A stretch of DNA of 61,077 nucleotides, counting the filler. It is 12 parts of 12 records of this genome, joined end to end, with 100 filler letters (N's around TTAATTAATTAA, not from the genome) between each part and the next. Parts side by side here need not be neighbours in the genome. Positions count along the whole stretch, not along the records: positions 18,499 to 21,650 come from SRR15195285_10018; 11 more parts are not named here. One strand, 5' to 3'. Numbering within the stretch: position 1 is the stretch's first letter; each line of letters opens with the position of its first letter. Shown here in pieces: positions 514 to 22,215 of this stretch. The notes beneath the pieces are model-generated. The model saw only the letters and a program-made list of their open reading frames with translations. It was not told where the DNA came from and ran no database searches. Both the position numbers and the translations under genes were made by a program.

Positions 514-2299
514 TCAGATCGCCATAGGCGGACCGCAAGCCGCCCAAGCGGGTAGTGGCGCCTCCACGTCGATCCCACTCTCAGGAACCTTGTAGCTGCA
601 TGCCAAGCCCACGAGCAGTATGGCATGAGATAGAGCACCACAGACAAGGCACCAACGGGAAGGGACTTTATCACCAAATTGCCAAGCAAATAGACCAAGT
701 GACGTAACAGCCCGAGAGATGAGACAGTGCACCTCACCGGTGAGCATGTAGCCAAATGCCACCTAGATCATCCAACGATGGCGAGCTGCTACCATCGTCG
801 CGCCCAGTGGTAGCATCGCAGATTTGTTGTTGAGTCCACTTGCAGCGAGGGCACCAATCGCGCCAGTGCTGTGAAGACGTGTACATCTTCATCAACGTGC
901 CTTGGGCGTCGTCACGGTAGGCAGTTACACCAGGACGAACCTCTGCAGGTAGTGTCCCGCCTATCAAATCAAACAGAAAGCGGACAAGTGCTCGTTCGGT
1001 TCGTAACCATGCAAGTTCTCAAACAATCAAAGAGGATACGAGTTGCTGTCTACTGCATGCAATTCCAACAGGGAGAACCGTACCGTAGAGAGAATCGTTT
1101 GCGATTGGCCAACCGATATGCGCCAAGTGGACGCGTATCTGATGACGCTGGCCGGTCTTCGGACGGCAAGCCACTAGCACGGTTCCGTCCGGCAGTGCTG
1201 ATGCGTCGCAGTCTAGCCTCTTAAAGTGTGTAACCGCTAGAGCAGCAGCATCTGAGCCCTCGCTGCTGGTGACAGCACCCTCAGCATGAACGTACGCTTT
1301 GCTGTCTGCACTTCGCCAGCCAATCGGCGCAGCCACAGTGAACTCCTCAGCTGGAAATTCGTCTGCGCCGCCACCAGCAGCGTCAAAACTTTGCGACCCT
1401 TGCAGGCGTCTCCCTCGCTGTACTCTAGCGACATACACCTTTTCGACCATATCCTTCTTCTGAATCTTATCTAACAGCCTCGCCGCCTGCCGCCGCGACT
1501 TGCCCAGCAGTAGCACGCCGCTCACGGGTTTATCGAGCCGGTGACCAGGCTCTGCACCAAAAAATCCAGTTTGACGCCGAACAATTCCCATTAGGCTGTT
1601 CGGGCCCATAGTCTCGCCAATCGTGGCAATGCCCGCGGGTTTGTCAATTGCCAGCATGGACTCGTTCTCGAACAGGACGCGCACCGTCACAGCGGGCACC
1701 ACCCGCTCGTGGACGTGTCGCACGATCTGCACCGCGCTCCCTATCTCAACCTCGGTATCCGGATCGGGAGTAATGAACTGGTAAGGGTCGTCGATTGAGC
1801 GCTTTCGTTTTCGGTACAGCACACGGCCTGCTGCTAGCTCGCCACGCCAGTGCGCCACGGCTTCCTCTAATGGCTGCTCACCCCGGTGCAGCCGCCACAT
1901 CTCGGCCAGCACTTGGCTCAGTGGGAGGTCAGCGTACCGCTCTTTCAACCACGTGATCTTGCTTTCGTCATACGGTGCTGCGTACTGCAAACCATGTGCG
2001 ACAACTGACGTTCCTGATGGTGGCGGCGGACCACCTCGTGCCGCTGCACCCGCTGCCCTCCTGTCAGCAGCTCTGGCTTTGAGCCGTTCTAGAGTCTCTG
2101 GGTCAGGCGTTCCATGAGAACGAAAGCACGCGTCTCCGTTCCGGCACTTGCCCTTCTGAAAACCTGCAAACTTGAGACACAACTCTTTCCCTTCCACGTC
2201 GAAGTACACGGGCTCGCGCTGTGAACGCTGTTGCTGCTGGATCGGCAGTACCTGTGGGTCTCCTGCTACCGCAGCCGCTGCTGCCTCGGGCTCAGCCAT
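514..2299 (-). CDS. RluA-family (RPUSD2/Pus9-like) pseudouridine synthase with N-terminal CCCH zinc finger; 3 exons (2299-1084, 960-738, 595-514)
   Basis: Motifs IDKPAG, catalytic HRLD, KVYVARV, PKTGQRHQIRVHLAHIGWPIANDSLYG. GT-AG introns 1083-961 and 737-596 restore the frame to WCPRC...GIWLHAHRY...APLPAWA. N-terminal C-x10-C-x5-C-x3-H. Confidence 0.9.
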
Positions 2300-2615
2300 T
2301 GGTGTCCGGGTCGCGGCGTGCGCTCGCGCCGCGGGCGCGCGTGTACATATACACTTATACAGTACCGCGCGTGCGGCCGCCACTTACATCATACTCGACA
2401 TACATGCAATTACAAAATACGATATAGCATATACCCAGGTACCGTCGTAGCCATGTAGGATCCTAGCGCTTGCGCGCGCGCCGGCGGCATACGTGTATAC
2501 AAATTGGCATTTATTTTACGGAGCACGAGGTAGATATCGCGCAGCAATAAATCGCCGCCGCGCGCCGCCGCCGCGCCGCCGCGCCGCCGGGAGCGTCTGT
2601 ACCGTACGTACTGGT
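2300..2615. promoter_or_regulatory. Probable bidirectional promoter region, TA/GTAC-rich
   Basis: Short gap between divergent starts; AT-rich core with TAGGATCCTA, also found in the divergent gap at 50883. Confidence 0.5.
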
Positions 2616-5600
2616 ATGTTCTTGGCGATGGTGCCTCAGCTGGGTCGTCGCTTTGTGCCGCTGCTGCCGCCGCCGCTGGTGGTGCTGGTGCTGGTGCTGT
2701 CAGCTTCCAACCCCACCAGCGCCTCCTTACCCGAATATCCACACAAGCTCCCAGTCCATGCAGCAGGAGAGTCTACAAGTGGAGAGCCTCTGCTCGTGCA
2801 AGAGCCTGCACCCCAATCACAAGTGCGCCAATTTGTCAGCTATAGCTATACACACTGTGGGATTAGATGTGTGGCTGGCAATCTCCGGGCTGGGCCCGGA
2901 CCACCCTCGCTTTGCGGCGCTCACAATTAACGTCGATGGGTGGCTGTACGGGCAGGCTGCGTCGGTTGCGACACAGCACAACTGGGCAGGGATTAGCAAC
3001 TACTACCTCTGGTCGTGCAATGCCACGGTACGGGCGGAGGCGCTCAATGCAGTACGCGCCGCTGGCCTGCGGGTAGTGCGCGTGTTCTTGGTTTCGACGA
3101 TAGGTGGGGGTGCCGTCGCCGCCTGCGCCGACACTCCAACACCGGATGTGGAACCACACTCCGTCGGCTCCTACGACGATACAATCCTCGCGCGGCTGGA
3201 CCAGCTGATGTACGAGGCTGCCGAGCGCGGCCTGAAGCTTACAGTAGCGCTTCATGATCGCTGGAGCCTCGGGTGCTGGCGGACAGACGCGTACGCGCAG
3301 AAGTACAACTTGACACGCGCCCCGTGCGGCTCTGAGCCTGGCCTCAACGATCCGACGGCATTCTACGAGAGTTCCGAAGCGTTGGACGATTTCAACCGTC
3401 GGATACACCATATTTTGACCTACCGCTCGGTGCGCTGCGTGGACTCGCGCATAGTGGATTGAGTGTCACATTCCAGCTGCGCTATCGTCATGTTCTGGGA
3501 AGTAGAAATGCTTGCCTGTCGGGTTTGCAGGCGCATACCGGCCGACCGTTAGGCGAGTGGTCTCAGGCGCTCTTTTCAGTCGAGGCGGAGAATGAGGCCT
3601 TCGGGCATGCTGAGGTTACGACAAAGTCAGCCAACTGGATGTGCAGGTGAGCTCACCTGCACTGGCCAGGCACACACAGTCGTCACGATATCGAAGAGTT
3701 GTAGAGCCCAACTTGAACAAACGAAACCATCGCAAACCATCATCTTTGAAATGGGAAGTGTAGGTGAAAGTCACCCTGCATGATTGTGCTTGGTGCATGT
3801 ATGAGCAGTACTGCTGCAACGATCCGGTCGCTTGTAGACCCCGCCGTGCTGGTGACGTCGGTATGTGGCCAAACGCACGCACGCTATGGCCACAGACATG
3901 CCTACGGATATTCCACCCCTCTCCCGACCAAATACAAAGTGTGCACCCAACATCATCAACCTAAGAGTTGCTCTGACAGGGTGGTGGTGGAGTGGGCAAC
4001 GCGACTGGCTTCGAGGAGCTCAAACTGGCAAGCTCATAGGCTATGTCGAACATGCCCGACTCAATTTCAATTGACCTCAAAAATCAGTCTCAGAACATTG
4101 CTGATCGGAATTGGAACAGGTGACAACAATGGCTGAGTGCAAGGCGATAGACGTAATCGCGCTCCACTCCTATGCGAGCAGTGGGAGCATCAGTGCTTCA
4201 ACGTTGGACAAGCAGCTATCCACGTATGGTCAGACACTTCGGAGTGCGAGTGCAAAAGGTGACATGGCGCGGCTCATCTTGCAGGAGTGGGGTGCTCAGT
4301 CCGCGGATGGCAATCGTACGAGACAAGCAGAGATATTCAGCGCGCAGGTGTGATCGTACATGTTCTCGGGTCTAGTCTTCTTGCCGGGTCGAGCTAGACT
4401 GACCAGTAATTTTTTTCGTTATCGCTCTGTTGGATTATCGTGTGAGCCGTCTGTAGGCACAAGTGGCTGCAAGGCACGAAGTGCCGCAAATATACTGGGG
4501 TCTGCAGCCGGCAAACCTTCCAACGCCTGCCTCAGACTTCGGTATCTGCCCTCCAGCACCAGCACCTACGCACTCTGGCACGCAAACTGTGTGGCAGACA
4601 GCGCTCTATCCAGCTACACAGGCTGCAGTCTTGCAGAGTGTTTCGGTGGACTGGCCTGAGATATGGGGATGCAGCATCAATCATGGCAACAACCACAGTG
4701 GGCTCAGCCAAGAATGCGAAATGAATGGTCGCTGCGTCACCGTCGATAGCCAGACAAGATTGGCATCATCATCAGGCCGTCAGTTTGGCAGCCACTCTGG
4801 CCATGGGTACTGCTTGTGCGAGCCGGGGTGGCGCGGGCCGACATGCGCCTCATTAAAGCTTGGCGCGACTCCACGCATGTCAGGATTTCGACATGAGAAC
4901 CACAGCTCTTGGGGCGGTTCCATTGTGAAGGACCCGCCGCTCCCAGGCGCAACAGGTGAGTGGGTGCTGTTGCCGCTACGCTGTGGGATTTGTAGCACCT
5001 TTGGTCAGAATCACGCGATCAGAGATCACACGTGTTTTTGTTATGTCGCGTGGTATCACCATTATGCTGGCTGTGGCTTCAACACAGATTCACCCGGACA
5101 GTGGAGCATGTTTTCATCATTCATGCTCGGGGAATGTGGCCTGAATGACTGGAACATCAACAGCGAAATTGTGCGTGCGGTGGCCTCCGACCCGGTGGGA
5201 CCTTACAAGATGGTGGAGCGAGTGGCTGGACCGTTCGTGAGTGGTTTTTGTGTGAAGGCACTGATATGTGTAGTGGCTGTTATAACGTTGGTTGTAGCGC
5301 CCATAGTGTTGATGTCGCTGTTGTGGCTGCTGCTGCTGTGGCTTTGTGGGGTGTGGCGGGTCCTACGCAGGCACACGAGCCAAACGTCGTGCAGGGGAGG
5401 ACACAGGACGGCCAGTACATTCTACTTGGCACCATGAATGCCCATACTGTCGCACCACCGGCAGGAATTGTCAACTGCAGCCATAATAACGAGCAGAGTG
5501 ACGGGCGCATGCTCGAGCAGCAGCGTGGTAGTTTGGATCCGCTACCACCGCCAAAGGACACGTACGCTTGGATTGCGTCGAGCCCTGCTGAGATGGCAAA

Positions 5601-6904: not shown

Positions 6905-7004
6905 NNNNNNNNNNNNNNNNNNNNNNNNNNNNNNNNNNNNNNNNNNNNTTAATTAATTAANNNNNNNNNNNNNNNNNNNNNNNNNNNNNNNNNNNNNNNN
7001 NNNN
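6905..7004. other. Artificial contig spacer (N44-TTAATTAATTAA-N44); identical copies at 18399, 21651, 25495, 29712, 35364, 39228, 43812, 48380, 53260 and 56685
   Basis: Same 100-nt structure 11 times; the core puts stop codons in all six frames. Confidence 0.99.
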
Positions 7005-8757: not shown

Positions 8758-11700
8758 CTAGGAAGCCTGCAGCGAGGCCTGCACCGCTTCCGGTGTTTGC
8801 AGGAACCGTATGTGCGGAAGTAATTTGGCGGCTGCTGCTAACTTTCTAGGGGAGTGCCTGTGCACTGCAACGGGCTTGTCGATGAGGTTTCTCGGGTTTG
8901 CGCGAGCTTCCCAGAACCTGCCGTCAGCTAGTGCCGCCTCGAGTCTGCCATGTCCAGAGTCATAATACTCCGAGTCAGGGTCTACTATGTGTATGTTGCC
9001 CGTGGCTGTCGCTGCATGTGGGTTCGATTCGATGAACCAGCGCGCAGGATCGCGGCCGAGCTCACTCATCTCCTCGTCTGAGAGATCGTCGTTTGAAACA
9101 GCGCTGCCGAATTCATCCGTTGCATCGATTATGTCTGGGTCAGCCAGGTTCGGCATTGCTAGCATCTCCGATGGGACCAGCCGCCAAGGTTCACCTTGCT
9201 GTATCGAATCGATGGTGTGGCGATCACCGCGTGTCGCGTGCTGGTGGGTTGCTGCCATCTCTTCAAACTCTGCGCGCTGCAGGTCCTCCTTAGCCATCGC
9301 CGTATATCTACCATCTAGCTTCCATCCCATCTTGTAAAGAAATTTTGTAGACCAGTCGCTCACGTACTTGGCATAAGTGAACCGGCCACGTTCGACGTAC
9401 ATCCGTGCGGCGTCCGCCATCTCTGCGTCAAGCCAGTCAAAAGGGCCGTACTGCACCGCGATTCGAACGAGGTAGTCAAATTTCTTCTCGTCAGTGAGAC
9501 TCGGCCACGGCGGGATCTGATGCTCCGTTTGAAAAGTACGTAGTTCTTCTGAAACCATGGCAATGATCGTGGCGCGCAACGAATCTCGTTCCTGCCAGTG
9601 TGGTAACGCTGGGGGCGTGCGAGAGACTCGCGCTAGCTGCTCCGGCGTCGGTGTACGCGGCGGCGGTAGATCATTGGGCTGGCAGGTCACCTCGAGCTCG
9701 ATTAACCCGTACGGATTAGGGACCGAATACTTTCCCTGTATTCTCAGCACCTCCAGCCAATTCTCCAACAGTGCTGTTGACACCTCTGTGGTCCTACCTT
9801 GCGCGCTCTGTGCGGTGTCAGTCAGCGGCCACCGCTGTGTAAACGTAAAGGCACCCCAGCCTCCGACCTCCCTGAGAAAGGGGCGCAAATCGATGTCGAT
9901 TCCGCCGAGAAGATCGTCGGCGTCCATGTCCTTGTCTTTTACTGCCACTGAGAGCACCCAGTCTTCCTGTCTGTGCATCGAAAACTGGAAGAGCTCCCCA
10001 TACACAGGATCGAGGTTCTTCTTCTGCACGCTGCTCTTGAAAGTCGGATGGTTGCCGCCACAGTTCAGCTCAACGTAAGGGTCCGAGGTGCGAGACGAGT
10101 CTGCCCCGATCAGCTTCACGCACTTAACAACCCGGATAGTAAGGGTCGCGTCACGCTTCACGTTCTCGCAGTTGGCGTCAGGAATCTGTTCCGTTTCAAG
10201 TGACTTTGGTGCGGGCTCTGGCTCAGGTTGTGTCAGGGGCACTAGTTCGCCTCCGTACTCGTCGCCTGAAACGCTGTTAGACTCGTCTGACTGCGAGAAG
10301 TCTGAAAGGTCCGAAAACTCATCATCGTCGATAGCCCGTGTGAAGTACTGCAGAAACTCCTCGTAGGAGACGTCGGCGTCATCGTCATCGTCCATTGACT
10401 GCAACAACCATTTGAGCTCGTTCTGCTCAATGTGCTTCACACCAAACTCAGCCAGGATTGAAGCGAGTTCGTTGGTATCCAAAGTACCGGACTCGTCTGT
10501 GTCTGAACGCTTGAATGCTATCGTAAGCTGCACGCGGTTGACTTGAACGGCCCGACGAATCTTTGCTTCGAGCCTGCGCAACCGTTTCTCTTCAGCCGCC
10601 CTGCGCTCCGCACGTGCCTGTTGGATGTCCGAAAAAGGTTTGACAACGCTCTGGCAAATGGCCTTTCGACGCTTCTGAATGTAGGTACACACCGCGTAGG
10701 TGATGCAAGGGATGCCTACCACACCGAGGAAGGAAAATATAGAACCCCAAATTAGCCACCAGACACATTCTGGGTCTTGGAGGCACGGGTCATACGAGTC
10801 CACCCACCGGTCACAGTTCTTTCCGCCTGTACCTGGGCGGCAAGTGCAGACATAGTCCCCTGGACCGTCGTTGCACACCGGAGGGTCACATACGTTCGGG
10901 TCCTTGCACGGTTCCATATGAATGCACGGATTTGATGCGCATTCATTAAAATTGGATTCGCAGTTACCAGTGAACAAGTGTGTCGGGTCACCGAGAGGCA
11001 CTCCATCTGCTGTGAAGCCCAATGGACCGTGGAAACCAACGCGACAAGTACAGCTATATATATCCACCTGGGTCATCTCGTCAAACATACAGGAGGAGCG
11101 ATCCAAACAAGACGACTGGTCACTGCACCAGGCATTGTTTCGGCACGGGTTCGATCGGCACTCGTCTATATCGGCTTGGCAGCGAACACCTGCCCAGCCT
11201 GCAACACAGTGGCACTTGTACGCATCAACCTCATCCTCACATCTGCCACCGCGATAGCACGGTCTACTTTCACAGTCGTCTACATCTGTTTCGCACTGGT
11301 GCCCGATAAAGCCTGTCGGACAGTCGCACGTGAATGCTGGTACACCGAACTCGTGGCTACATCTACCACCATTGAAACATGGGCTCGACTCGCACTCGTC
11401 ATAATCCTCCTCACAATTGTGACCTTGAAATCCATCAGCACAAGCACAAATGTAAGCATCTACATGATCAACACAATTGTTGAGGATTAGACCAACACAC
11501 GGATCACTTATGCATTCATCAATATCGATCTCGCAGTTCAGTCCCTCATAGCCCTGGGAACAGCTGCAACCATAACTGTCAACTGGTATCTGCGAATTGG
11601 TCGTTGACTCGGAGCATTCTCCGTCATTGTTGCACGGACTGCTGTCGCATTCAACTATATCGACGTCACAGTCAACTCCCGTCCATCCCGGTCGGCACTC

Positions 11701-14700
11701 GCACTGATAGGCCAGCACGGGCACTTCACAATACGGAAAGGCTTCTGAGTCTGGGACGCAGGCCCGACTGTACTGGCAAGTCTGCCAGTCAGCATCAAGC
11801 CGTTTGCCCGTCGCATTGATTTCTGCGTAGCAAGCTCCAGCTTTCAGATACATGCAGGAGTCACGGCTATTAGGCTTGAACTCGGCCTCCGCTGCAGAGC
11901 AGGCAACCCATTCGTCTACGTCATCACATGACTGATCATAAATGGATTTGCACTCCTCCAGAACTGTGCACGCAGCTTCCGCTTCAGCGCGGGATGCATA
12001 CGAACCAAGTACATGTTGGTCCCCGCACCAAAAACCGTAGTACTGTGTCCAACGAGGGGCCACGGCAGCATATGTTGCTCCGTTTGCCTCTGGGTGTGAT
12101 ACGCGGACCAACTCAGCACACTCTGTTGGCCCAGGTGCATCGCCCATGAACACATCGCTGCCGCCAGCTCCATCCCCAGCACTATAGACGCACGACAAGC
12201 ACGACACCATGCCAACAACTGAACAATCAGGATCGCCGCTAGAGTCTGTGCACTCCGCGCCATACCTGCACGGCGCACTTGCACACTCATCAAAGTCAAC
12301 CTCGCATTGATGTGTGACGCCGTACCCAGGCATGCAAGTGCACGTGTACTCGTCGATGGCAGGGCCATCAGAACAGGGTGCATTATTGTCACAGGGATGA
12401 GATCGGCACTCGTCAATGTCTAGTTCACAGTTGTGCCCTTCCCACCCTGGCAAACATATACACCCGTACATGTCTACCATGCCTTCAGTGTAACAAGTAG
12501 CTCCGTTTTTACATGGGTCGGAGTAGCACTCATCGATATCAATGTCACAGGTCCCGTTGATGGAACTTGTGTAACCTGCAGCACAAGTACAGTTGAACGC
12601 GTTGATGGCGCTGACGGGAATCCATTGGCGTTGAGTCGGATTCCATTTTAGATCAAGAGAATCCTGGCAAGAGCCACCATTCATGCATGGGTGACTAGAA
12701 CACTCGTCCTTGTCACATTCACAGTTGTGACACTCCCATCCTGGAACACAGTCGCATGCGTACGCATCCACCAACTTCATAGAATGCCATTCAGTGACGG
12801 TCTCATTAAACGTCGACGACGTGTTGTCTAGATCGAGGTAAGGTATTGGAGTCAGTGTGAGGTTGTACTCTCCACAAGTTGCGCCGTTTTGACATGGGGC
12901 AGATAAACATTCGTTGATGTCAATGTCACAGTGAAAACCTTCCCAACCAGGATCGCAGCGACATGAATAGCTCCCAATACGTTGGAGGCAAGTTCCGTGG
13001 GCACACGGTCGGTCGTCGACGCACTCATTGACGTTCCCAACAAGTACAATCACACTCAACGAGTATGGTTGCGAAATGCCAAAGCCAGCGAAAGTACTTG
13101 ATGGAGTCAATGTGCTCTGAAAATTCAGCAAAGCATCTGGCGGCTGAACTCCAGATGGATGAAGATGGCCTCCGATGATGGTTCCTGAAGGGATCACCTC
13201 CCAAATCACGACTGTAGAACCGGCATGAAGTTCGAGGATTCGAATTCGGCTCGGCGGAACGCCTGCTAGACGCGCTGCATCTTCTGCAAACTCAATTTCA
13301 AATGTGCGGCGTGTCTCGTCGTCCCACGTGGAGATATCGACAGCGAGCGTCAGCTCAACGTGCATAAGCTCGCAGTACATACCTTCCGTCCGGATTTGCC
13401 AAGCATTTCGCCCCGGAAGCATTCCGCTGGGGCATTGCTCGCACTGAGTGCCATCACTGATCTCCCACAAGCCACATTCGAGGCATTCTCCTCTGTCTTC
13501 GCGTGGCATCTGCCCTGGAACGCAGAATTCACACCGCATTCCGAATTCACTCGCTGATTTGTTGCCCAGTGTCGTACAAGAGATGCAGGAGACGCCGCCT
13601 GCCAGCCAGTTGGGTTGGAATCCAGGCTCACAAGGACGACACACTTCGCCGTCTGCAGAATACTTGGAGACACAGGTCTCACACTGCGATCGCTCCTCGT
13701 TAGCACCTCTACCAGGCGTACAGCGCTTGCACTGTGCGCCCATTTCGCTAACGCACCCACCGTCTACACAAGATGCGTTTACACAGTGAGCGTCTCGAGT
13801 CCACGCAGGTTGCTCTTCACTGATAGGTTGCGTTTCGTGCAAATCACCCAAACAGAAAATCTCAGTAATGTCGCTACATAATATGCAATCCAAACGATCG
13901 GCTGTAGGCATGCTGCCCGGCGGACAAACTACATTTGGTTCTGGCTCCGGCTCTGGCTCCGGTAGTGGTTGCGTTGGTTGATACTCAAGAAAGAACCCGG
14001 GCATTTGCGCAACTCCAGCGTAGCTCCCATACACCTTCGTCCACTCTCCTGGATTGTAGCCTTCGGCAAAGTTAAGAGCAATGTAGTCTTTGCCAGGAGT
14101 GTCAAAGAAGAGCTCATACTTGCCCCAGTTCGTAAAATTGAATACCTCTCCGACAGGATCGCCACGATAGGTCACACGCCTTACCCCTTCAAGCGTGTCT
14201 TTTTCCCACCACCAACGGCCTTCTGAGTTGTTGCCGCGTCCACCGGTCCAGCCAGTGGGTGGATTACCATCTGCATCCAGGAGCTGGTTGATGCACTCTT
14301 GCTCAAGCTCATTGACGATCGTAGCTAGGTATGCTATTCCACGAGTCTCTTGGTCAGGATCGTAACTATGTGACCTCGCCGCACCCATACGCTCTGCCTC
14401 AGCTCTAGCTTCGTCCCAAGATGAAGGAAATGGTACGTACTCGTACACGTGCCCGTTGTCGCAATACATGTCGTTCGGTTCTGGCTCGGGTTCTGGTTCT
14501 GGCTCCGGCCTGTATGAGCTGCACACGTTATCGTAGCATGCATCGCCAGCTGTTGTGTTACACAGGCCACAAAACACTTGTCCACCGCAGTCGTCATCAA
14601 TGTGCCCACAGTCGAATTCTTGTAAAGCACACGTGGTCGGAGAGCACGAACATGTGCCTGGACCGCTGTAACCGATCAATGGAATTGTATCTGCCGGATG

Positions 14701-17700
14701 GCACGACTCGGGTTCAGTGAGCCGACGGTAGCACAATCGGGCGGTAGCATCACCATCTTCTTCTCCACCTTCATCGATATGGAGTATTGATTTCGTTGCG
14801 ATCGTGACGACGGTCTGCCCGTCTATATAGATGCAGTTGTTTGTTTCATACTGGTCAGTAGCAGTATTGAAAGTCGTTTCACAATCCTCCGCATTTTGCG
14901 CTGGCTCGCCAGTGAGAGGCAAAGAGAGCATACGTAAAGCACCAGACGCCTCTCGGCCGATTGGGTGAGAACACGCCCTGTATATTGTTGGGCTGAGTTT
15001 TTCATAACAGCTTTCCGCCGGGATGTGCTGAGATGTCACGACAATCTGATTCACGCTGGTCGCATAATATAAGTTCCCGTCGTGATTAGACAGTGAATGA
15101 AGAGCGCATACACCGCCCTGATTGACAAGAATTGTGAATCCAGCGCAATCGGCGTCTGCGGAGCACATTGCACTGCATTCATCGGCGCCGACAACTTCTG
15201 GGCTGGGAATGACCATTCGCACATTTTCGCCTTCGGAGTTAACACACCATCCAGGTAGTGGAGGAGCGTATGATGAGTTCAAACTGACAGACGATTCCCA
15301 GTCGAACGGCGTATACGTGCAGATGGGTGAATCGTGCCACTGCACTCCTGCAAACTCGCAAGCCCGGCGACTGCTCGGCTCGTCTCCAGATATATCAGCT
15401 GCTGCACATTGGTCTACGGTATAATTCCTTTCTTGGAAGCTGCCAGGAGGCTGGCCCCAATCAATCCACGGCGATGTGCCGTTGCTTATCTCCGGGGTGC
15501 AGGTTTCTCCACCGCTGTCGAATGCAGCGATGCGCCGCACAACACACTCACGGGTCTCATCTGGCCACACCCAGGACATATGGCAGGTGTCGTTCTGTAA
15601 GTGGCATGTCTCTGAGCTGATACCATAGTCATTTTCGTCCACTTCGAGATGTGGACAGAGGCCGCAAGTGATGGGACAGAGCGATTGCAGAGTGCCATCT
15701 CCTCCATTGCGCTGCATGAGCTCTGGCACTGCACGAGAGATGTCCGAATCGCACTGGACACCGAAATAGCTTAGCAGTACCTTCAACTCCTCGCATGTGG
15801 AATTCGAAAACAGTGGCTCCAACGGTGCCAAGCTTGGCAGAAGAATGAAAGGAACTTCGGTAGTGTTGCATACTGGCAGTTGCAGATCGCACGGCGACCC
15901 ACGGCCTACACGCGTGATGTCGCATTCGTGTACTACAACACGAAGTGTCAGACGAATCGTGGGATTTGTGACCGTCCCTACACAGTACGTGCCAGCCATC
16001 GACTGGGTTGGAGGCGTTTGTGGTTCGTAGGTCAAGATCGGCGGATCCGGCCAGTGGTACTGCACCGCTTCCAGTCGCGGCAGTGAAGGCAATTCGATTG
16101 ACGGAAAGTACTGCGTGGCCAAGGTGCACTCTACACGTCCTGTGTCCGTGTTGCAAAATTCGCTGGTTCGGCCCGCGCTTCCGAAGTGATGCGCATCTTC
16201 GGAGTCCATCGGAAAGCTTAAGTCCGAGGGACACTCCGCCATGGGGTCCGGAAAGTATGCGGCAACATGCAGGTGGTCAGGTGAGCGCGGGCTCCAACTT
16301 ATGTCCAGTGAATCGCCCACATATATAGTCAGCTCGGATGGCACCAGAGACCGCTCAGATGCCTCTCGTGCAGCGGGCACGACTACATGATGCCGCGCAG
16401 GAAGATGAGGAGCAAGCAGGTGCGCTACTTGCGGCATGCCCTCCTGAAACAGTGTCATTCGACATGCATTTTCGCCATTCTGTCGCGGACCATTCCCGCA
16501 TTTGCCACACTCCAGTGTGCCACCACATCTGTCGCCTAACGTCCCACAGTTGACACCTTCCTGCTCGCACGTCGTTGGCACACATTCGCACTTGTGCTCG
16601 ATCGAACACACCTCCTCATATCCCGTGGTAGCATTTGAAACGCATGTGCCACACTCCAAGTCGATCCCACACCCGTCTGTGATTGTCCCGCAGGTCGCAC
16701 CTTTTGTCACGCACTTCGCTTCCACACGGCCAGCACTTGCACCACATTCTTCACGAACAGGCGCAGTGTCGCACGTGAACGGAGTACAGACGCAAACGTT
16801 GTCTTCACACGCGTTTTGGCCGCCCCATGTGTTCGTGCCGCACACTCCGCAATCCAATTCGCCGCCACACCCGTCCGCGCGAGCTCCGCACGTGGCCCCC
16901 ACCTCTTCGCAGGTGACTGGAATGCACACACAGTAGCTTGCCCGAGGCACGGCTGGTTGATATGCAACCGCTTCGACAGTAGGCGTAGTGGCCGTACCGC
17001 GCACGTACTCCACCGCCTGCACCTCGGGAATGTACTCGTTCGGCACGTGCTGTGATGATTCCAGCGAGCATGCAGCACATGCTCCACCAGTTCCTGCAAA
17101 CCCAGGCGGACAAGGGTCGCACCCAGTCTGATCGGGATTGGGCTGATGGCCATCTCCGCATTGAACGCAGCTTGTCTTGCCTACGTACACAGGAGCCGTA
17201 GCCCCTCCCAATTCCCGCAGTGTTGCATTGATCGTACCGTTGCAGAACGACGCCTCGGCACAGGTGCCGCAGCTGCTGATAACCAGCGGCCGCAGCCACA
17301 TTGGGTCGTCGCGGTAGTCTCCGAAACTCCCGATGTGGGTCTGGTGAGGGTAACCACACCCATCGCTCATCAGCCCACACTCTGCTTGTTCAGTTTCACA
17401 CGTGGACTCTACGCACTCGCAAACCTTCTCGTCGTTGCAGACCTCATTCGCAGCGCATGTCCCACATGTCAGTGCTCCTGGCCCTGGGCAGCCGTCGCTA
17501 ATCCGCCCACAGTTTTTCTGCTCAATCTCGCAAGTTGTAGGAGTGCACGTGCACCGGTAGTCCTCGCTGCACGCCTGCTGAGTCCCGTAACAGGACCCGC
17601 AATCAAGCGTCCCACCACAACCGTCGCTTAGTGCAGCAGTTGCAACGAAATCCGCTCGGAAGTCCGAGGCCTTAGGGGAGCACAACGCTCCAGCTGGGAT

Positions 17701-18315
17701 GCCCCCAGCCAAGACAGTGCCCTTCTCCTCGCATGTGGCTGGCTTGCAGGTGCACTCGCGCTGACCCGGAGCGGCATCCGGGTCGCACCATTCGCCAGGG
17801 GTGCGAACCCCGTAATCCATCGTCGGATTGTCGCACCCATCCCAGCTGAGTGTGGCGTTGCCGCATCGGACCAGCCCGTCGCAGCCGTTGTCCCAGGAGC
17901 CGCAGGTTGCTGTCAGCTCTTCGCACGTCGTCGGGATGCAGGTGCACACATTATCGACGCAGAGCTTGTCCTCCGGGCACGTGCCGCAGTGCAAGATCTC
18001 GCCGCATGGCGCGCCGCTTGTGTCAAACCCGGCGCTGCTGAGGAACTCGCCGCAGTCGTAGCCTTCTCTTTCGCACGTAGATGCATCACACACGCACGCA
18101 TTGTTGACGCAAGCTTGCCCAACGTCGCAGGTGCCGCAGTCAAGCTGCCCCCCGCACCCATCGTCCACAGACCCGCACGCGTACGCACAGGCAATCACAG
18201 AGACGGGCACGCACGGCGGCGGCGGCGGCGGCTGCGCCCGCGCCAGCGTGTTCGGGCGCAGCGCAGCAATTCCCAGGCTGACACTGAACACCAGCCGGAA
18301 TGTATATCTGTCCAT
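8758..18315 (-). CDS. Giant single-pass membrane protein (about 3185 aa, one uninterrupted ORF): Cys-rich repeats, C-type lectin, 12 Ca-binding EGF repeats, TM helix, EF-hand pair, C2 domain
   Basis: Signal-like N-terminus from ATG 18315; CGxxxDGCGGxLxCGxC repeats; NGHVYEYV...SWDEARAEA...YLATI; DIDECxSxPCxNG repeats; TM WWLIWGSIFSFLGVVGIPCITYAV; EF loops DTDESGTLDTNE and DDDDDADVSYEE; C2 SDPYVEL...KKNLDPVYGELF...KDKDMDADDLLG. Confidence 0.88.
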   Translation of the reverse strand: MDRYTFRLVFSVSLGIAALRPNTLARAQPPPPPPCVPVSVIACAYACGSVDDGCGGQLDCGTCDVGQACVNNACVCDASTCEREGYDCGEFLSSAGFDTSGAPCGEILHCGTCPEDKLCVDNVCTCIPTTCEELTATCGSWDNGCDGLVRCGNATLSWDGCDNPTMDYGVRTPGEWCDPDAAPGQRECTCKPATCEEKGTVLAGGIPAGALCSPKASDFRADFVATAALSDGCGGTLDCGSCYGTQQACSEDYRCTCTPTTCEIEQKNCGRISDGCPGPGALTCGTCAANEVCNDEKVCECVESTCETEQAECGLMSDGCGYPHQTHIGSFGDYRDDPMWLRPLVISSCGTCAEASFCNGTINATLRELGGATAPVYVGKTSCVQCGDGHQPNPDQTGCDPCPPGFAGTGGACAACSLESSQHVPNEYIPEVQAVEYVRGTATTPTVEAVAYQPAVPRASYCVCIPVTCEEVGATCGARADGCGGELDCGVCGTNTWGGQNACEDNVCVCTPFTCDTAPVREECGASAGRVEAKCVTKGATCGTITDGCGIDLECGTCVSNATTGYEEVCSIEHKCECVPTTCEQEGVNCGTLGDRCGGTLECGKCGNGPRQNGENACRMTLFQEGMPQVAHLLAPHLPARHHVVVPAAREASERSLVPSELTIYVGDSLDISWSPRSPDHLHVAAYFPDPMAECPSDLSFPMDSEDAHHFGSAGRTSEFCNTDTGRVECTLATQYFPSIELPSLPRLEAVQYHWPDPPILTYEPQTPPTQSMAGTYCVGTVTNPTIRLTLRVVVHECDITRVGRGSPCDLQLPVCNTTEVPFILLPSLAPLEPLFSNSTCEELKVLLSYFGVQCDSDISRAVPELMQRNGGDGTLQSLCPITCGLCPHLEVDENDYGISSETCHLQNDTCHMSWVWPDETRECVVRRIAAFDSGGETCTPEISNGTSPWIDWGQPPGSFQERNYTVDQCAAADISGDEPSSRRACEFAGVQWHDSPICTYTPFDWESSVSLNSSYAPPLPGWCVNSEGENVRMVIPSPEVVGADECSAMCSADADCAGFTILVNQGGVCALHSLSNHDGNLYYATSVNQIVVTSQHIPAESCYEKLSPTIYRACSHPIGREASGALRMLSLPLTGEPAQNAEDCETTFNTATDQYETNNCIYIDGQTVVTIATKSILHIDEGGEEDGDATARLCYRRLTEPESCHPADTIPLIGYSGPGTCSCSPTTCALQEFDCGHIDDDCGGQVFCGLCNTTAGDACYDNVCSSYRPEPEPEPEPEPNDMYCDNGHVYEYVPFPSSWDEARAEAERMGAARSHSYDPDQETRGIAYLATIVNELEQECINQLLDADGNPPTGWTGGRGNNSEGRWWWEKDTLEGVRRVTYRGDPVGEVFNFTNWGKYELFFDTPGKDYIALNFAEGYNPGEWTKVYGSYAGVAQMPGFFLEYQPTQPLPEPEPEPEPNVVCPPGSMPTADRLDCILCSDITEIFCLGDLHETQPISEEQPAWTRDAHCVNASCVDGGCVSEMGAQCKRCTPGRGANEERSQCETCVSKYSADGEVCRPCEPGFQPNWLAGGVSCISCTTLGNKSASEFGMRCEFCVPGQMPREDRGECLECGLWEISDGTQCEQCPSGMLPGRNAWQIRTEGMYCELMHVELTLAVDISTWDDETRRTFEIEFAEDAARLAGVPPSRIRILELHAGSTVVIWEVIPSGTIIGGHLHPSGVQPPDALLNFQSTLTPSSTFAGFGISQPYSLSVIVLVGNVNECVDDRPCAHGTCLQRIGSYSCRCDPGWEGFHCDIDINECLSAPCQNGATCGEYNLTLTPIPYLDLDNTSSTFNETVTEWHSMKLVDAYACDCVPGWECHNCECDKDECSSHPCMNGGSCQDSLDLKWNPTQRQWIPVSAINAFNCTCAAGYTSSINGTCDIDIDECYSDPCKNGATCYTEGMVDMYGCICLPGWEGHNCELDIDECRSHPCDNNAPCSDGPAIDEYTCTCMPGYGVTHQCEVDFDECASAPCRYGAECTDSSGDPDCSVVGMVSCLSCVYSAGDGAGGSDVFMGDAPGPTECAELVRVSHPEANGATYAAVAPRWTQYYGFWCGDQHVLGSYASRAEAEAACTVLEECKSIYDQSCDDVDEWVACSAAEAEFKPNSRDSCMYLKAGACYAEINATGKRLDADWQTCQYSRACVPDSEAFPYCEVPVLAYQCECRPGWTGVDCDVDIVECDSSPCNNDGECSESTTNSQIPVDSYGCSCSQGYEGLNCEIDIDECISDPCVGLILNNCVDHVDAYICACADGFQGHNCEEDYDECESSPCFNGGRCSHEFGVPAFTCDCPTGFIGHQCETDVDDCESRPCYRGGRCEDEVDAYKCHCVAGWAGVRCQADIDECRSNPCRNNAWCSDQSSCLDRSSCMFDEMTQVDIYSCTCRVGFHGPLGFTADGVPLGDPTHLFTGNCESNFNECASNPCIHMEPCKDPNVCDPPVCNDGPGDYVCTCRPGTGGKNCDRWVDSYDPCLQDPECVWWLIWGSIFSFLGVVGIPCITYAVCTYIQKRRKAICQSVVKPFSDIQQARAERRAAEEKRLRRLEAKIRRAVQVNRVQLTIAFKRSDTDESGTLDTNELASILAEFGVKHIEQNELKWLLQSMDDDDDADVSYEEFLQYFTRAIDDDEFSDLSDFSQSDESNSVSGDEYGGELVPLTQPEPEPAPKSLETEQIPDANCENVKRDATLTIRVVKCVKLIGADSSRTSDPYVELNCGGNHPTFKSSVQKKNLDPVYGELFQFSMHRQEDWVLSVAVKDKDMDADDLLGGIDIDLRPFLREVGGWGAFTFTQRWPLTDTAQSAQGRTTEVSTALLENWLEVLRIQGKYSVPNPYGLIELEVTCQPNDLPPPRTPTPEQLARVSRTPPALPHWQERDSLRATIIAMVSEELRTFQTEHQIPPWPSLTDEKKFDYLVRIAVQYGPFDWLDAEMADAARMYVERGRFTYAKYVSDWSTKFLYKMGWKLDGRYTAMAKEDLQRAEFEEMAATHQHATRGDRHTIDSIQQGEPWRLVPSEMLAMPNLADPDIIDATDEFGSAVSNDDLSDEEMSELGRDPARWFIESNPHAATATGNIHIVDPDSEYYDSGHGRLEAALADGRFWEARANPRNLIDKPVAVHRHSPRKLAAAAKLLPHIRFLQTPEAVQASLQAS

Positions 18316-18498
18316 GCCAGACCCCAGCCACTCAGCCAGAGTCACTCACTCAGCGCCCCTGCTGCGTGCCGACCAGCTGCACCAGCTGCACCAGCTGCNN
18401 NNNNNNNNNNNNNNNNNNNNNNNNNNNNNNNNNNNNNNNNNNTTAATTAATTAANNNNNNNNNNNNNNNNNNNNNNNNNNNNNNNNNNNNNNNNNNNN

Positions 18499-21360
18499 GC
18501 TCTGGCTCTGACTCTGGCTCTGGCTCTGACATCGGCGGTGCCGCTCCCACCAGCAGCTGTCTCATTGAGCGACGCAGCACGTACACTCCTCCATAGACTG
18601 CGCAGCATCGGCAGAAAGACTGAGGAATTTCACCAGCTCCATACATTGTGGTGATGAAGGCTGTATGGGTATCCGCAAAGCGCCCGAGGCAACTCATGTA
18701 ACGGTGTAGCGATGCCAGGCCATCCTCAGTTGTCACCACTCCGCCGCCGTCCTTGGTTGGAGCGCGGTCTTCGAGTGCAAGAGCATACAGAATGAACGTG
18801 ATCAACGTCTCTGTGAGTTGACGATGCTCCAAGAAGTCAACAAATGGTCGGCTAAGCCACTCGTCCAGTTCTGAAGTCGCAGCTGATGCTGCTGCAGAGG
18901 TTGCGGCAGTACTTGCCTCCGCCCGACGAACGCCAACAGCTTTTTGGCGCAGAACTTCGGCTTCGTTCGTTTGCAAGCCGCCAGACTTCGACGCCAGTGT
19001 GCTCACAGCTGCTGCATCGGACAATGGCTCATAGCTGAGTACAGTTTGCATGAATTTCATGAGAAGGCGCTTCTCCTTCATTCCAATGAATTTGTCTTTG
19101 AAGACCTCGCCCTTGGAACATGGCACGCGCTGCAGCCCTCCGTCGACGAAGAGGTAGCTTCCCTGCACGGAGATGAATTCAGAATAGCGGTGCAACCCAC
19201 TGTCAACGATCAAGTCTACAAGCGGCCCACGACAGAACGCAAGCCGAGGTACAATATCCAAACTATATTCTCGGCTGCGAGCCGTCAGGTTAGTCCATGA
19301 CCTCAGACGCATCCTTTCTTCCTCCTTGCGTGCATTTGACTCTTCCTGCATCTCTGAGATGAGAAAAGAAAACAATTCCCTGGACTCGCGGGCCTGGCCT
19401 GGGCTTTTTGGCGTACCGAATCTGATGAGCGCACGGAACGTCCAACCAACCGTCACGAAATCTCCAGCTTCACGCACTGCGCCAGCTAGGCGCTGCAAGC
19501 TTTCATCGAGGTCGTGATCATCGAAAGGGTGATAGACCACGTCTCGATTAGCTTCGGACGCTGCCATCCATTGCAGCACAGCCTTCAACGGGGCAAATCC
19601 ACCGAACACACCGCAACCCCAGTTCCCAGTGGCAACCTTCGTAAAATGGTTCGGCGATGCATCAGCGTCGTTTCCTGCATCTTTGAATCCAGCGTAGGCC
19701 TTGCCGAGCTCTCGCCTCAGCATGTGTTGCTGAAATTGCTGATCGACCGACTCGTCTCTAAATCTCAAAGCATCGATGGCTGTGAGAGTGGTCCGAATGC
19801 TGCCGTCTTCTGTGCGCGGAGAGCTGTCAACACAATCTCCGCCATATCGAAGAGTGCGTGCATAACCGTCGTACACAGAAAACTGCTCTGCGCCTACCAT
19901 AACGATTGCCTCTGATACACTATCCTCCTGCGTTTCAGCCAACATGGACTGGCAGATGAGCATGGACACGCACAGCTCCGGGCAGACCGCGAATTTGATT
20001 TCCTCCTGCACAGAGCCAGAGCCGAGCACCCCACCCCCTATGAATTCGTTCGCAAAGTCAACCTGTAAACACCCGGCCGACGCTTCGATTCCCGAAGCTT
20101 CTGTCGTCAAGGCACGGAGCGGCACAGCACTGCGTAACCAACTCGGAGGAGCGTCCACGACGTTACGCCGAATCTGGAGGGTACCCCGAGGCTCGTCTTT
20201 TCCTGCAGCCTGGAGGCGTTCAAAATAATGAATGAACATCCGTAGTTTTGCCACACCGGATTCCGTCGATATTCCCAGCAGCCGGCTGAAGTCGCCCCTG
20301 GGCATGTGGGTACGACGATACGCGAGTCCACCTTCCGGCGGCTTGAATGTGCAGAGAAACATATTCGCCAGTAGACTTGCGACTGCGGTCCGTGGCAACT
20401 CTACAACTCCAGCCTTTCGCTGCTCGAGCAGCGTAATCGGCTGCGGGCATAGCTCAGGCAGTGCCAACGCCAGTGTCACCACGTGGGGCAGCGTAGAATC
20501 AAAGAAGTTGGCCTCGCTGAAGTCTCCATCGTACAATATTTCGAGTGCGCGCAATCCACAAGCATCGACTGGCTCGCCATGCAAATCCTGCAGCCTGTCT
20601 TCGAAATCAGCAAAACTCTGGACGGGGGGTTGCCACGCTTGCTGGACCCGCTCCCACCACTCGTGGTCGGCGTGAGGAAGCTCCACGCACGGGCTGACGT
20701 CGTCCTGCGGTCCTGGCAGCACAGCAGGAGGCGCTGTGGTGGAAGCATCGCTAGACGACTTCGTGGCCGGCGCAGCGCTGGACAGGGTTGCACGAAGGCC
20801 AAGCTCTGCAGACACCCGCTGCAGAAGCGCGCTTTGGTCGGAGGGGTCAACACCACCGAGGCCAAGCATCTCTGCGGCATGCTGTGCCTGCAAGGTCATA
20901 TCGTACTGCATGTCAGATTCCAGCGATGCGACTCTACACGGTCCAAGACATGACTTACCGTATCCTCCGCGCTCAGATCTGCAGCTAGGCTGAGCTCACG
21001 CCGTACTTCTGGTATCAGCTCGTCATCAGTCGGGACTCCTGGCTCAGGCACGCGCCATTCCTCGACGTTGCTGAACCGCGGGACGGCGTCGGGCAGCAAT
21101 GGCTGCAGTGCCGAGACATCGCCGAGATCTGGCGCTGCCGCTGTAGCACCCTCGGTCGCCACGGCCCGCGTAGAGCGTATGTACTTCACGAACTCCTGCA
21201 GCTGAAACGAGGCCCAATCCTCGCCATAGAAGTCGTTCGGGTCCAGGTGCACCACCTTCTTCGACACCCGCGCTGCGGCACCCGCAACAATGCACTCGAC
21301 CAGCCCCGTTCCAACGACGACCACTTCATACTGATCCTCCGGCAGGTGCTCCTCGTCCAT
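18499..21360 (-). CDS. Rab escort protein (REP/CHM family) with an internal PARG domain; intron 20958-20906; 3'-truncated by the contig end
   Basis: Exon 1 YEVVVVGTGLVECIVAGAAARVSKKVVHLDPNDFYG. A 53-nt GTAAGT...CAG phase-0 intron joins it in frame to exon 2, which has PARG motifs and then REP motifs SREYSLDIVPR, VPCSKGEVF, YGAGEIPQSFCRCCAVYGGVYVLR. Confidence 0.9.
19400..20680 (-). other. PARG catalytic domain nested within the REP gene (boundaries approximate)
   Basis: ASLLANMFLCTF, KLRMFIHYF, LQVDFANEFIGGGVLGSGSVQEEIKFAVCPEL, GAEQFSVYDGY, AIDAL, RELGKAYAGF, VATGNWGCGVFGG, LQWMAAS. Confidence 0.92.
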
Positions 21361-22215
21361 CACCGTGGCAGCTCGCCTCCGCTGGGGCTGCCGTTCAAAT
21401 AGCCCACGTGCACTCCGTCGCCTGCGCTGCAGCTGCCTCCACGCAGGCTCGTGAGCTCAGGGCTGCGCAGAGTCCTCGCGAGACGTGCTTGGTCCCCTGG
21501 CGGCGCGCAGGCCGGCGCAGCGCCGCCAGCGCTGGCGGCGGCGGGTTGCTTTTAATTACTCGTTTAGTCGATTTAGTCGAGATTATCAATAATCAAAGAT
21601 CTACTGTCGTAATCAATTTCATCAAAATGAAAAGAACAAATGTGTCCTCCNNNNNNNNNNNNNNNNNNNNNNNNNNNNNNNNNNNNNNNNNNNNTTAATT
21701 AATTAANNNNNNNNNNNNNNNNNNNNNNNNNNNNNNNNNNNNNNNNNNNNTAAACAGCATGTCGTGGATTTGCAGCTCAAGTTACACTGATCTGCGATGA
21801 CGGTGACACTATTGGCGTAACTTTGGCGTGTTGGCCGACCTCAGTGGCTACAGTCACATTCGTACCCGCGTACTCGGCTGCTAGGACGTTCTCTCTATCG
21901 GCTGTGCGCGTATTTGGGTGGTTGCCACCATGTAACAGCTACTGGTTCCTGGTGTAGCAAATAGTATTCTCAACTCTGGCGGGAAAGAGGCTCGCACTAG
22001 ATGAGCACATGGGAAGACCACGTGGTGGCCCCACAGTACGCTTTATGCAGTGCTCGTTGGTCCATCCAAGTTACGGGGAGGACAACAGCAGCAGCTACAC
22101 TGATTACGATCCTGTCGCGATAAACCGTGCTGTTTGTGGTGGAGCCGAATGTAGCAATGTGTAGATGATGAGTGATAGACGAGTGCTAGATTCTGCAATC
22201 TTCTCGCACTTTCGC

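Follow-up and report, generated by a model that had tools for sequence, protein, structure and literature searches.

A complete PARG domain in the variable insert of a Rab escort protein from an uncultured marine protist lineage

A Rab escort protein (REP) gene that contains a PARG domain in frame was analysed on a DNA stretch of 61,077 bases, hereafter the window. The window is not one molecule but consists of 12 short contigs, joined by 11 identical artificial N44-TTAATTAATTAA-N44 linkers (6905-7004, 18399-18498, 21651-21750 and eight more). The REP-PARG gene is alone on its contig of 3,152 bp (18499..21650, no strand assigned), which has an artificial linker on either side, and is encoded on the minus strand. 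PARG is the main eraser of poly(ADP-ribose) (PAR). REP is component A of Rab geranylgeranyltransferase and an essential housekeeping chaperone in the eukaryotes studied. The protein is very probably a Rab escort protein with a complete canonical PARG in the REP-specific variable insert, with flexible linkers and, in complete relatives, a C-terminal PDZ domain. The architecture is confirmed as real and is built from two well-known families. Full-text literature searches, with subscription journals and supplements outside their scope, yielded no description of a REP-PARG fusion or of a physical REP-PARG link, in agreement with the original prediction made from the sequence.

The predicted gene has two exons in the window, both on the minus strand. 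Exon 1 (20959..21360; 134 amino acids) begins with the ATG at 21360 and the sequence MDEEHLP. It codes for the REP/GDI N-terminal fold motif at residues 8-63 (21172-21339, minus strand), followed by a tail that is specific to the lineage and contains the conserved motif RFxxVEEW (21055-21078, minus strand). An intron of 71 nt (20888..20958, minus strand; GTAAGT...TTGCAG, phase 0) separates it from exon 2 (18500..20887; 796 amino acids). This exon is a single frame open to the contig end and comprises a linker, PARG, a second linker and the middle part of REP. Exon 1 matches the Pfam GDI profile (PF00996) at profile positions 2-57 (E 8e-13) and aligns with residues 4-61 of rat REP-1. The profile scans then find PARG_cat_N and PARG_cat_C. 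Behind PARG, REP resumes without a stop at 19028..19285 (minus strand), a region that matches GDI profile positions 65-150 (E 4.3e-26) and includes VPCSKGEVFKDKFIGMKEKR (19067-19126). The whole PARG thus interrupts the profile between positions 57 and 65. The nested order and the resumption of REP in the same exon had both been foreseen from the sequence, and the scans bear them out with E values that leave chance matches far behind. The REP-PARG gene also contains QSFCRCCAVYGG.

Proteins with the same architecture were found in other sources. Exon 2 was searched against 5.8 billion proteins. Among the 120 matches listed, four had PARG and GDI in one frame (P0001-P0004), one was a stand-alone REP (P0014) and 115 were PARG proteins without GDI. 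P0001-P0004 have 83, 78, 66 and 61% identity to the window gene and 1,094-1,191 amino acids; relatives of exon 2 were aligned at 61-83% identity over 90-100% of the exon. All four start just after the position of the window intron, as expected for gene calls made on genomic, unspliced contigs. With exon 1 as the query, 14 proteins were obtained, of which 11 (P0121-P0131; 49-99% identity, 139-195 amino acids) cover the exon fully. These share the MDEEHLP start and are conserved to the last exon codon. The longest contig is 6,741 nt for both P0128, an exon 1 homologue, and P0003, which suggests that they lie on one contig. A search of longer proteins with exon 1 gave two matches, both with a GDI N-terminus followed by PARG. 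P0136 is an uninterrupted frame of 1,430 amino acids on a contig of 4,632 nt and comprises a REP N-terminus, PARG, the remaining REP sequence and a PDZ-like tail. This single frame means that the REP and PARG parts form one polypeptide.

A scan of JGI metagenome contigs detected 25 loci. PARG was present in two of them, L001 and L002; the other 23 were ordinary GDI or REP genes. L001 (5,681 nt) has exon 1 at 437-844 and the PARG-REP exon at 927-4211, with an 82-nt GT..AG intron in between, and codes for 1,340 amino acids in total. L002 (2,572 nt) has exon 1, a 59-nt GT..AG intron and the PARG-REP exon in the same layout as the window.

The canonical PARG catalytic domain lies at 19346..20659 (minus strand), with PARG_cat_N (PF20811) at 20165-20515 and PARG_cat_C (PF05028, macro fold) at 19505-20146. 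The matches were well above the curated cut-offs, with 90.0 bits for PARG_cat_N (E 1.7e-25, cut-off 25.6) and 224 bits for PARG_cat_C (E 1.9e-66, cut-off 26.3). The solved PARG 8adj matched with E 1.3e-67 over query residues 83-520, and the rat, mouse and human PARGs with 1e-64 to 1e-66. The signature loop GGGVLGSGSVQEE (20000..20038, minus strand) aligns to gggvlghgcvqee of 8adj. The PARG catalytic signature is defined as GGG-x6-8-QEE. An intact loop had been predicted, which was found, with the spacing GGG-x7-QEE in place of the proposed GGG-x6-QEE. The motif GG[GA]-x7-QEE occurs in eight of eight fusion sequences that cover the region (GGG in six, GGA in L002 and P0004). The predicted TGNWGCGVFGG is present at 19598..19630 (minus strand) and aligns to tgnwgcgafgg of solved PARGs; we take it to be the diphosphate-binding loop. 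With three positions left free, TGNWG.G.F.G matches all eight fusions. The stretch sVYdGYa aligns to sEYtGYa of rat PARG and keeps the tyrosine of xYxGY, presumably the aromatic residue over the adenine.

Compared with canonical PARGs (8ADJ, rat 3UEK, human 4A0D/4B1H, mouse 4FC2, Tetrahymena 4EPP; E 1e-67 to 1e-37), the fusion has both Pfam halves, the GGG-x7-QEE loop, the TGNWGCGxFGG loop and the xYxGY stretch in common. It differs in its setting: the PARG is neither free-standing nor N-terminally extended but located inside another fold, between linkers of about 150 and 40-70 residues. It also has Phe in place of Asp after the GG of the TGNWGCGxFGG loop. At the start of exon 2 (20642-20887), a short conserved stretch precedes PARG (AAxxLGL ... 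LxIRTG or LGLR). It recurs in L001, L002 and P0136 and has no Pfam match. In lenient Pfam scans of the linkers, no family was found in three pieces and one match with E 0.3 in the fourth.

Other proteins also combine PARG with further domains. P0159 has PARG and a PNK 3'-phosphatase, P0006 has EF-hands and PARG, and P0139 is a tandem PARG of 1,500 amino acids with two complete PARGs. As in the fusion, the PARG module is reused in other domain combinations. In contrast to the fusion, these three are end-to-end, none is nested and none has a REP or GDI part.

The REP parts are of the REP type and not of the GDI type, as had been predicted. The window gene scored 122.6 bits with rat REP-1 and 67.9 with GDI, and L001 scored 145.4 and 73.5, respectively. 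In comparison with solved structures, the REP part matched rat REP-1 (1ltx, 1vg0) with E 1.5e-34 and GDIs with about 5e-18. GDI shares the superfamily and the Pfam model PF00996 with the fusion, but its scores are about half of those for REP-1. The GDI-type loci L004-L015 have the second block about 50-110 nt after the first, without an insert. A REP-type motif, EIPQSFCRCCAVYGG (18587..18631, minus strand), has elpqcfcrmcavfgg of rat REP-1 as its counterpart in the L001 alignment. The seven fusions that extend this far and the stand-alone REP P0014 have the motif in identical or almost identical form. The motif VPCSK.EVFK.K.I.M.EKR is present in eight of eight fusions and in P0014.

REP-1/CHM (rat, PDB 1LTX and 1VG0) and yeast Mrs6 resemble the fusion in the N-terminal fold motif (4-61) and in three further blocks. 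L001 aligns to rat REP-1 residues 208-305, 315-408 and 534-610, and the window gene reaches about REP-1 residue 408. The ELPQxFCRxCAVxGG motif is common to REP-1 and the fusion. L001 has Phe and Arg at rat REP-1 positions 279 and 290, counted from the alignment; Phe279 and Arg290 are presumably contacts to the Rab geranylgeranyltransferase. PF22603 (RAE1_2_domI_C, cut-off 27 bits) was matched by P0001 (32.6) and L001 (30.0), with scores below the curated cut-off for P0003 (21.8) and P0004 (24.1), in a region beyond the end of the window contig.

In REP-1 and in the fusion alike, an insert separates the first two blocks. Ahead of PARG, the alignment with rat REP-1 ends at residue 61, and behind PARG it starts again at residue 208 (208-305), hence PARG occupies the insert site of REP-1 itself; the original prediction had placed it at this variable insertion. 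The REP-1 insert comprises about residues 62-207 and has, to our knowledge, no enzyme fold, whereas the interval in the fusion has about 600 residues and holds a whole PARG. The fusions differ from REP-1 also in a two-residue insertion (ADTHTAF), which was otherwise seen only in P0014. This stand-alone REP (698 amino acids, ENA) is the nearest non-fusion relative with 40-46% identity and shares RFxxVExW and ADTHTAF. In P0014, only about 45 residues lie between RFxxVExW and the next REP block, without PARG and without a break of the frame.

Complete relatives end in a C-terminal PDZ domain, a new observation and a further difference from REP-1. In L001, the domain (PF00595, E 2e-11) is encoded by a third exon (4352-4681) behind a 140-nt GT..AG intron. 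It was also matched in P0003 (residues 1109-1178, E 6e-7) and P0004 (residues 1011-1077, E 7e-8). The PDZ-like tail of P0136 is visible by eye and was above the threshold of E 0.001 in the Pfam scan. The 140-nt intron of L001 is missing from P0004 and P0136, and P0001 and P0002 end in an apparent read-through of it.

The intron between REP N-terminus and PARG is predicted from the comparison with relatives. The last codon of exon 1 is complete and directly precedes GTAAGT, and two CAG acceptors restore the downstream frame. The first gives the 71-nt intron with exon 2 from 20887, the alternative a 53-nt intron (20906-20958) with exon 2 from 20905. The 71-nt form is favoured because P0136, which has no intron, joins ...GDT to LSQAAGVLGLGG, the counterpart of EDT | AQHAAEMLGLGG in the window. 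The predicted junction (20959/20887) connects ...GAGGATACG to GCACAGCATGCC. Inside exon 1 of L002, an extra in-frame GT..AG intron of 63 nt was observed (245-307); its removal restores the consensus His-Leu-Asp. It implies intron gain or loss within the clade. In P0130, the gene caller reads through the in-frame 63-nt intron of exon 1.

The two modules are conserved as proteins and under purifying selection, and the linker is not conserved. Nei-Gojobori dN/dS was calculated for the pairs window-L001, window-L002 and L001-L002, with dS near or beyond saturation in some cells. The values were 0.12-0.20 for PARG (about 400-417 codons), 0.06 for the middle part of REP (window-L001), 0.04-0.29 for the REP N-terminus and 0.36-0.97 for the linker before PARG.

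A quick maximum-likelihood tree was built from 25 REP rows: the REP parts of eight fusions, P0014 and 16 REP-type matches picked from a representative library. A branch (SH-aLRT 92) sets the eight fusions apart, and the row nearest to them is P0014 (100). This topology would fit a single insertion event. The architecture is conserved across at least three sublineages. The carrier is an uncultured marine protist lineage. Sequence words of the contig were found in 19 public runs of 14 studies, all of them marine or seawater metagenomes.

The fusion clade is probably picozoan or near it, with one relative from a record that is probably a picozoan single-cell co-assembly. P0135 is a EukProt record named COSAG05_NODE_581.... 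A preprint (10.1101/2025.05.06.652364) names COSAG05 as one of the picozoan genomes that Schön et al. 2021 co-assembled from single cells. COSAG labels are also used for a centrohelid, but not COSAG05, in a second paper (PMC7615077). Picozoa was not adopted as a name for the window organism; its only support is the label of one relative's record.

The points that weigh against an expressed, active fusion protein concern the assembly, the splicing, the catalytic loops and the coupling of the two functions. For the assembly, the window copy of the gene is incomplete. The contig end at 18499 truncates it within a repeat that codes for (Pro-Glu)n, and the contig of 3,152 bp comes from a fragmented bin. 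In addition, one contig of the DNA run X1 departs from the window at 20762, inside the variable linker 1, and continues with 171 unlike letters. Both the short contig and the departure would suit an assembly chimera, in which a PARG gene was misjoined into a REP gene. Contigs from two DNA runs and two RNA-library runs were compared with the window; the best-matching run may represent the source sample. Position 20762 is passed without a break by three other contigs, which come from three studies. The PARG-to-REP boundary is crossed by contigs of X1 (18972-20831) and X2 (18538-20127). Intron and exon 2 start are crossed by contigs of X1 (20804-21040), X2 (20873-21585) and the RNA-library run X14 (20663-21087). 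Both domain junctions are thus spanned, by contigs of three studies; a lack of reads across the junctions had been named beforehand as a refuting outcome. The relatives have the same order at 54-83% identity, in other assemblies and single reading frames, and so do the two metagenome contigs L001 and L002. A stop of the GDI profile at 57 and a restart at 65 are not expected from a random misjoin. The chimera is effectively refuted, in line with the original prediction, which had held the nested layout difficult to reconcile with one.

The break of the contig was probably caused by the repeat. Pro-Glu/Ser-Glu is encoded at 18499..18537 (minus strand, contig end), where skipped repeats and cut reads were flagged. 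L001 has a long (E-L-E-P)n stretch at the equivalent protein position (about 3300-3480 of L001). Within the REP part, the Pro-Glu or Glu-Leu-Glu-Pro repeat follows the CAVYGG motif, and its length differs among relatives. By comparison with L001, the window would hold the first 930 of about 1,340 residues, and an estimated 410, including the C-terminal PDZ domain, are missing.

For the splicing, both RNA-library contigs (X14, 20663-21087; X15, 20903-21170; one study) cross the intron unspliced, and no spliced joint was found in the contigs of the two RNA-library runs of this study. Gene callers also give separate short and long proteins for all intron-bearing relatives. The intron might accordingly be retained, with two products: a REP N-terminal fragment of about 155 amino acids and a PARG-REP protein without this N-terminus, translated from an internal Met. 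The comparison with relatives argues strongly for one spliced protein. A GT..AG intron is located at the same codon boundary in window, L001 and L002; with 71 (or 53), 82 and 59 nt, none of its lengths is divisible by three, yet phase and adjacent protein sequence are retained. In 12 of 12 aligned exon 1 frames, conservation extends to the last exon residue, which is directly followed by a Val (GTx) codon, equivalent to the GT donor of the window, and then by complete divergence. P0136, without the intron, fuses both parts in frame exactly there. A REP without the first strand-helix motif would probably miss part of domain I. The RNA library covers the non-coding DNA upstream of the ATG (21404-21638) at similar depth, which makes DNA carry-over or pre-mRNA the likelier reading of the unspliced contigs. 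Two separate products are therefore regarded as highly improbable. The predicted in-frame splicing of exon 1 to PARG is upheld by the GT..AG intron and the relatives, and was not seen in RNA.

An additional isoform without the PARG segment is conceivable. PARG-skipping transcripts, which had been proposed as a counter-test, were not seen in the contigs of the two RNA-library runs. The cover is thin with a depth of 3-7, and contigs drop rare forms and cannot show absence; uncovered parts, such as 19665-20300 in X14, are uninformative.

For the catalytic loops, the sublineage of L002 and P0004 reads GGA in place of GGG, and its TGNWGCG loop carries Ser instead of Cys (GSG); P0003 has FCG for FGG. 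Together with the Phe after the GG of the TGNWGCGxFGG loop, an Asp in the solved PARGs shown, these variants would be compatible with a PARG that is no longer an enzyme but a PAR-binding reader or a structural spacer in the REP insert. Such a loss of activity is unlikely: QEE, the Gly-rich loop and the aligned Tyr of xYxGY are kept, the low dN/dS across the whole domain of 400 residues fits a constrained enzyme, and the match to active solved PARGs reaches E 1e-67.

The functional coupling of REP and PARG is pure inference. From the conserved parts, the REP core may still bind unprenylated Rab and present it to the transferase, and the tethered PARG may still hydrolyse PAR. Canonical PARG cuts the ribose-ribose bonds within PAR and does not remove the protein-linked mono-ADP-ribose of toxin-type transferases. 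The original prediction had suggested that the PARG erases ADP-ribose put on Rabs by host or pathogen transferases during escort. A PARG physically tethered to a Rab-binding chaperone would suit this role, and bacterial effectors modify Rabs. Hydrolysis within PAR chains and not at the protein-ADP-ribose bond is a poor fit, and the window provides no transferase, Rab or pathogen context. The suggestion gained no support and is very unlikely; removal of mono-ADP-ribose is less likely than PAR clearance.

Binding of PAR to a PAR-binding motif of Rab5 in MNNG-exposed mammalian cells is reported in one study, which attributes a PARP1-dependent block of endocytosis to inhibited Rab5 activation (PMC9319841). 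Tentatively, the fusion could hold a PAR-degrading activity in the cytosol at complexes of Rab, REP and transferase. The tethered PARG would clear PAR chains, either covalent or non-covalently bound, from Rabs or the prenylation machinery, and through its PDZ domain the protein may attach to a partner's C-terminal peptide. Local PAR clearance is preferred because of the PARG cleavage within PAR chains and the reported PAR binding of Rab5. Simple anchoring of PARG in the cytosol is a conceivable alternative.

A further, rather unlikely scenario is that the fusion is the only REP of the clade. Every Rab would then be prenylated by a machine with a built-in PAR hydrolase, and PAR signalling, for instance in stress or DNA damage, would gate Rab delivery. 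PARG would sense or clear PAR on Rabs or transferase, and the PDZ domain would select the site of action. If true, this would be a direct and previously unknown link from poly(ADP-ribose) metabolism to the biogenesis of membrane traffic. Independent of this scenario, a conserved nested fusion under purifying selection hints that PAR turnover meets Rab prenylation or trafficking. With two activities in one protein, the fusion offers a compact handle on the PAR-Rab link. It also illustrates cleanly how a whole enzyme can be placed in a loop of another fold and may mark a poorly known marine picoeukaryote lineage.

None of the fusion proteins detected comes from NCBI or UniRef, and UniProt-based catalogues therefore probably lack the architecture. 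The representative library (50% identity) gave 7,038 matches at E <= 0.001, of which the best 150 were considered; seven of these were Pfam-scanned and the other 143 judged by length and matched range. P0001-P0004 and P0136, the known fusions, were missing from the result, although the profile had been built from them and they would be expected to score highest; P0014 and REP fragments came first. Consequently, this library cannot count fusions. Among the best 150 of the 7,038 matches, only P0139, the tandem PARG, was long enough behind the PARG match; P0137, P0138, P0140 and P0141 are fragments of the REP part. In the ESM Atlas, the best match (0.75) was a cluster of GDI fragments, which shows neither novelty nor absence.

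As the contigs of the window are joined artificially, the window neighbours of the REP-PARG gene are not its physical neighbours, and features that span a linker are artefacts. A tblastn search of the 12 contigs gave one PARG and one REP locus only, both of them this gene. No Rfam match to RNA genes was obtained anywhere in the window. The GC content in 3-kb bins is 53-64%. The other contigs carry ordinary eukaryotic genes, among them a Tcp10_C/CPAP-type centriole protein, a DnaJ protein, an ion channel and a dihydroxy-acid dehydratase. On the adjoining contig, a single open frame of 3,195 codons (8758-18345, minus strand) fills most of the sequence. By eye, the encoded protein is rich in cysteine, has EGF-like repeats and ends in a cytoplasmic part at the C-terminus.

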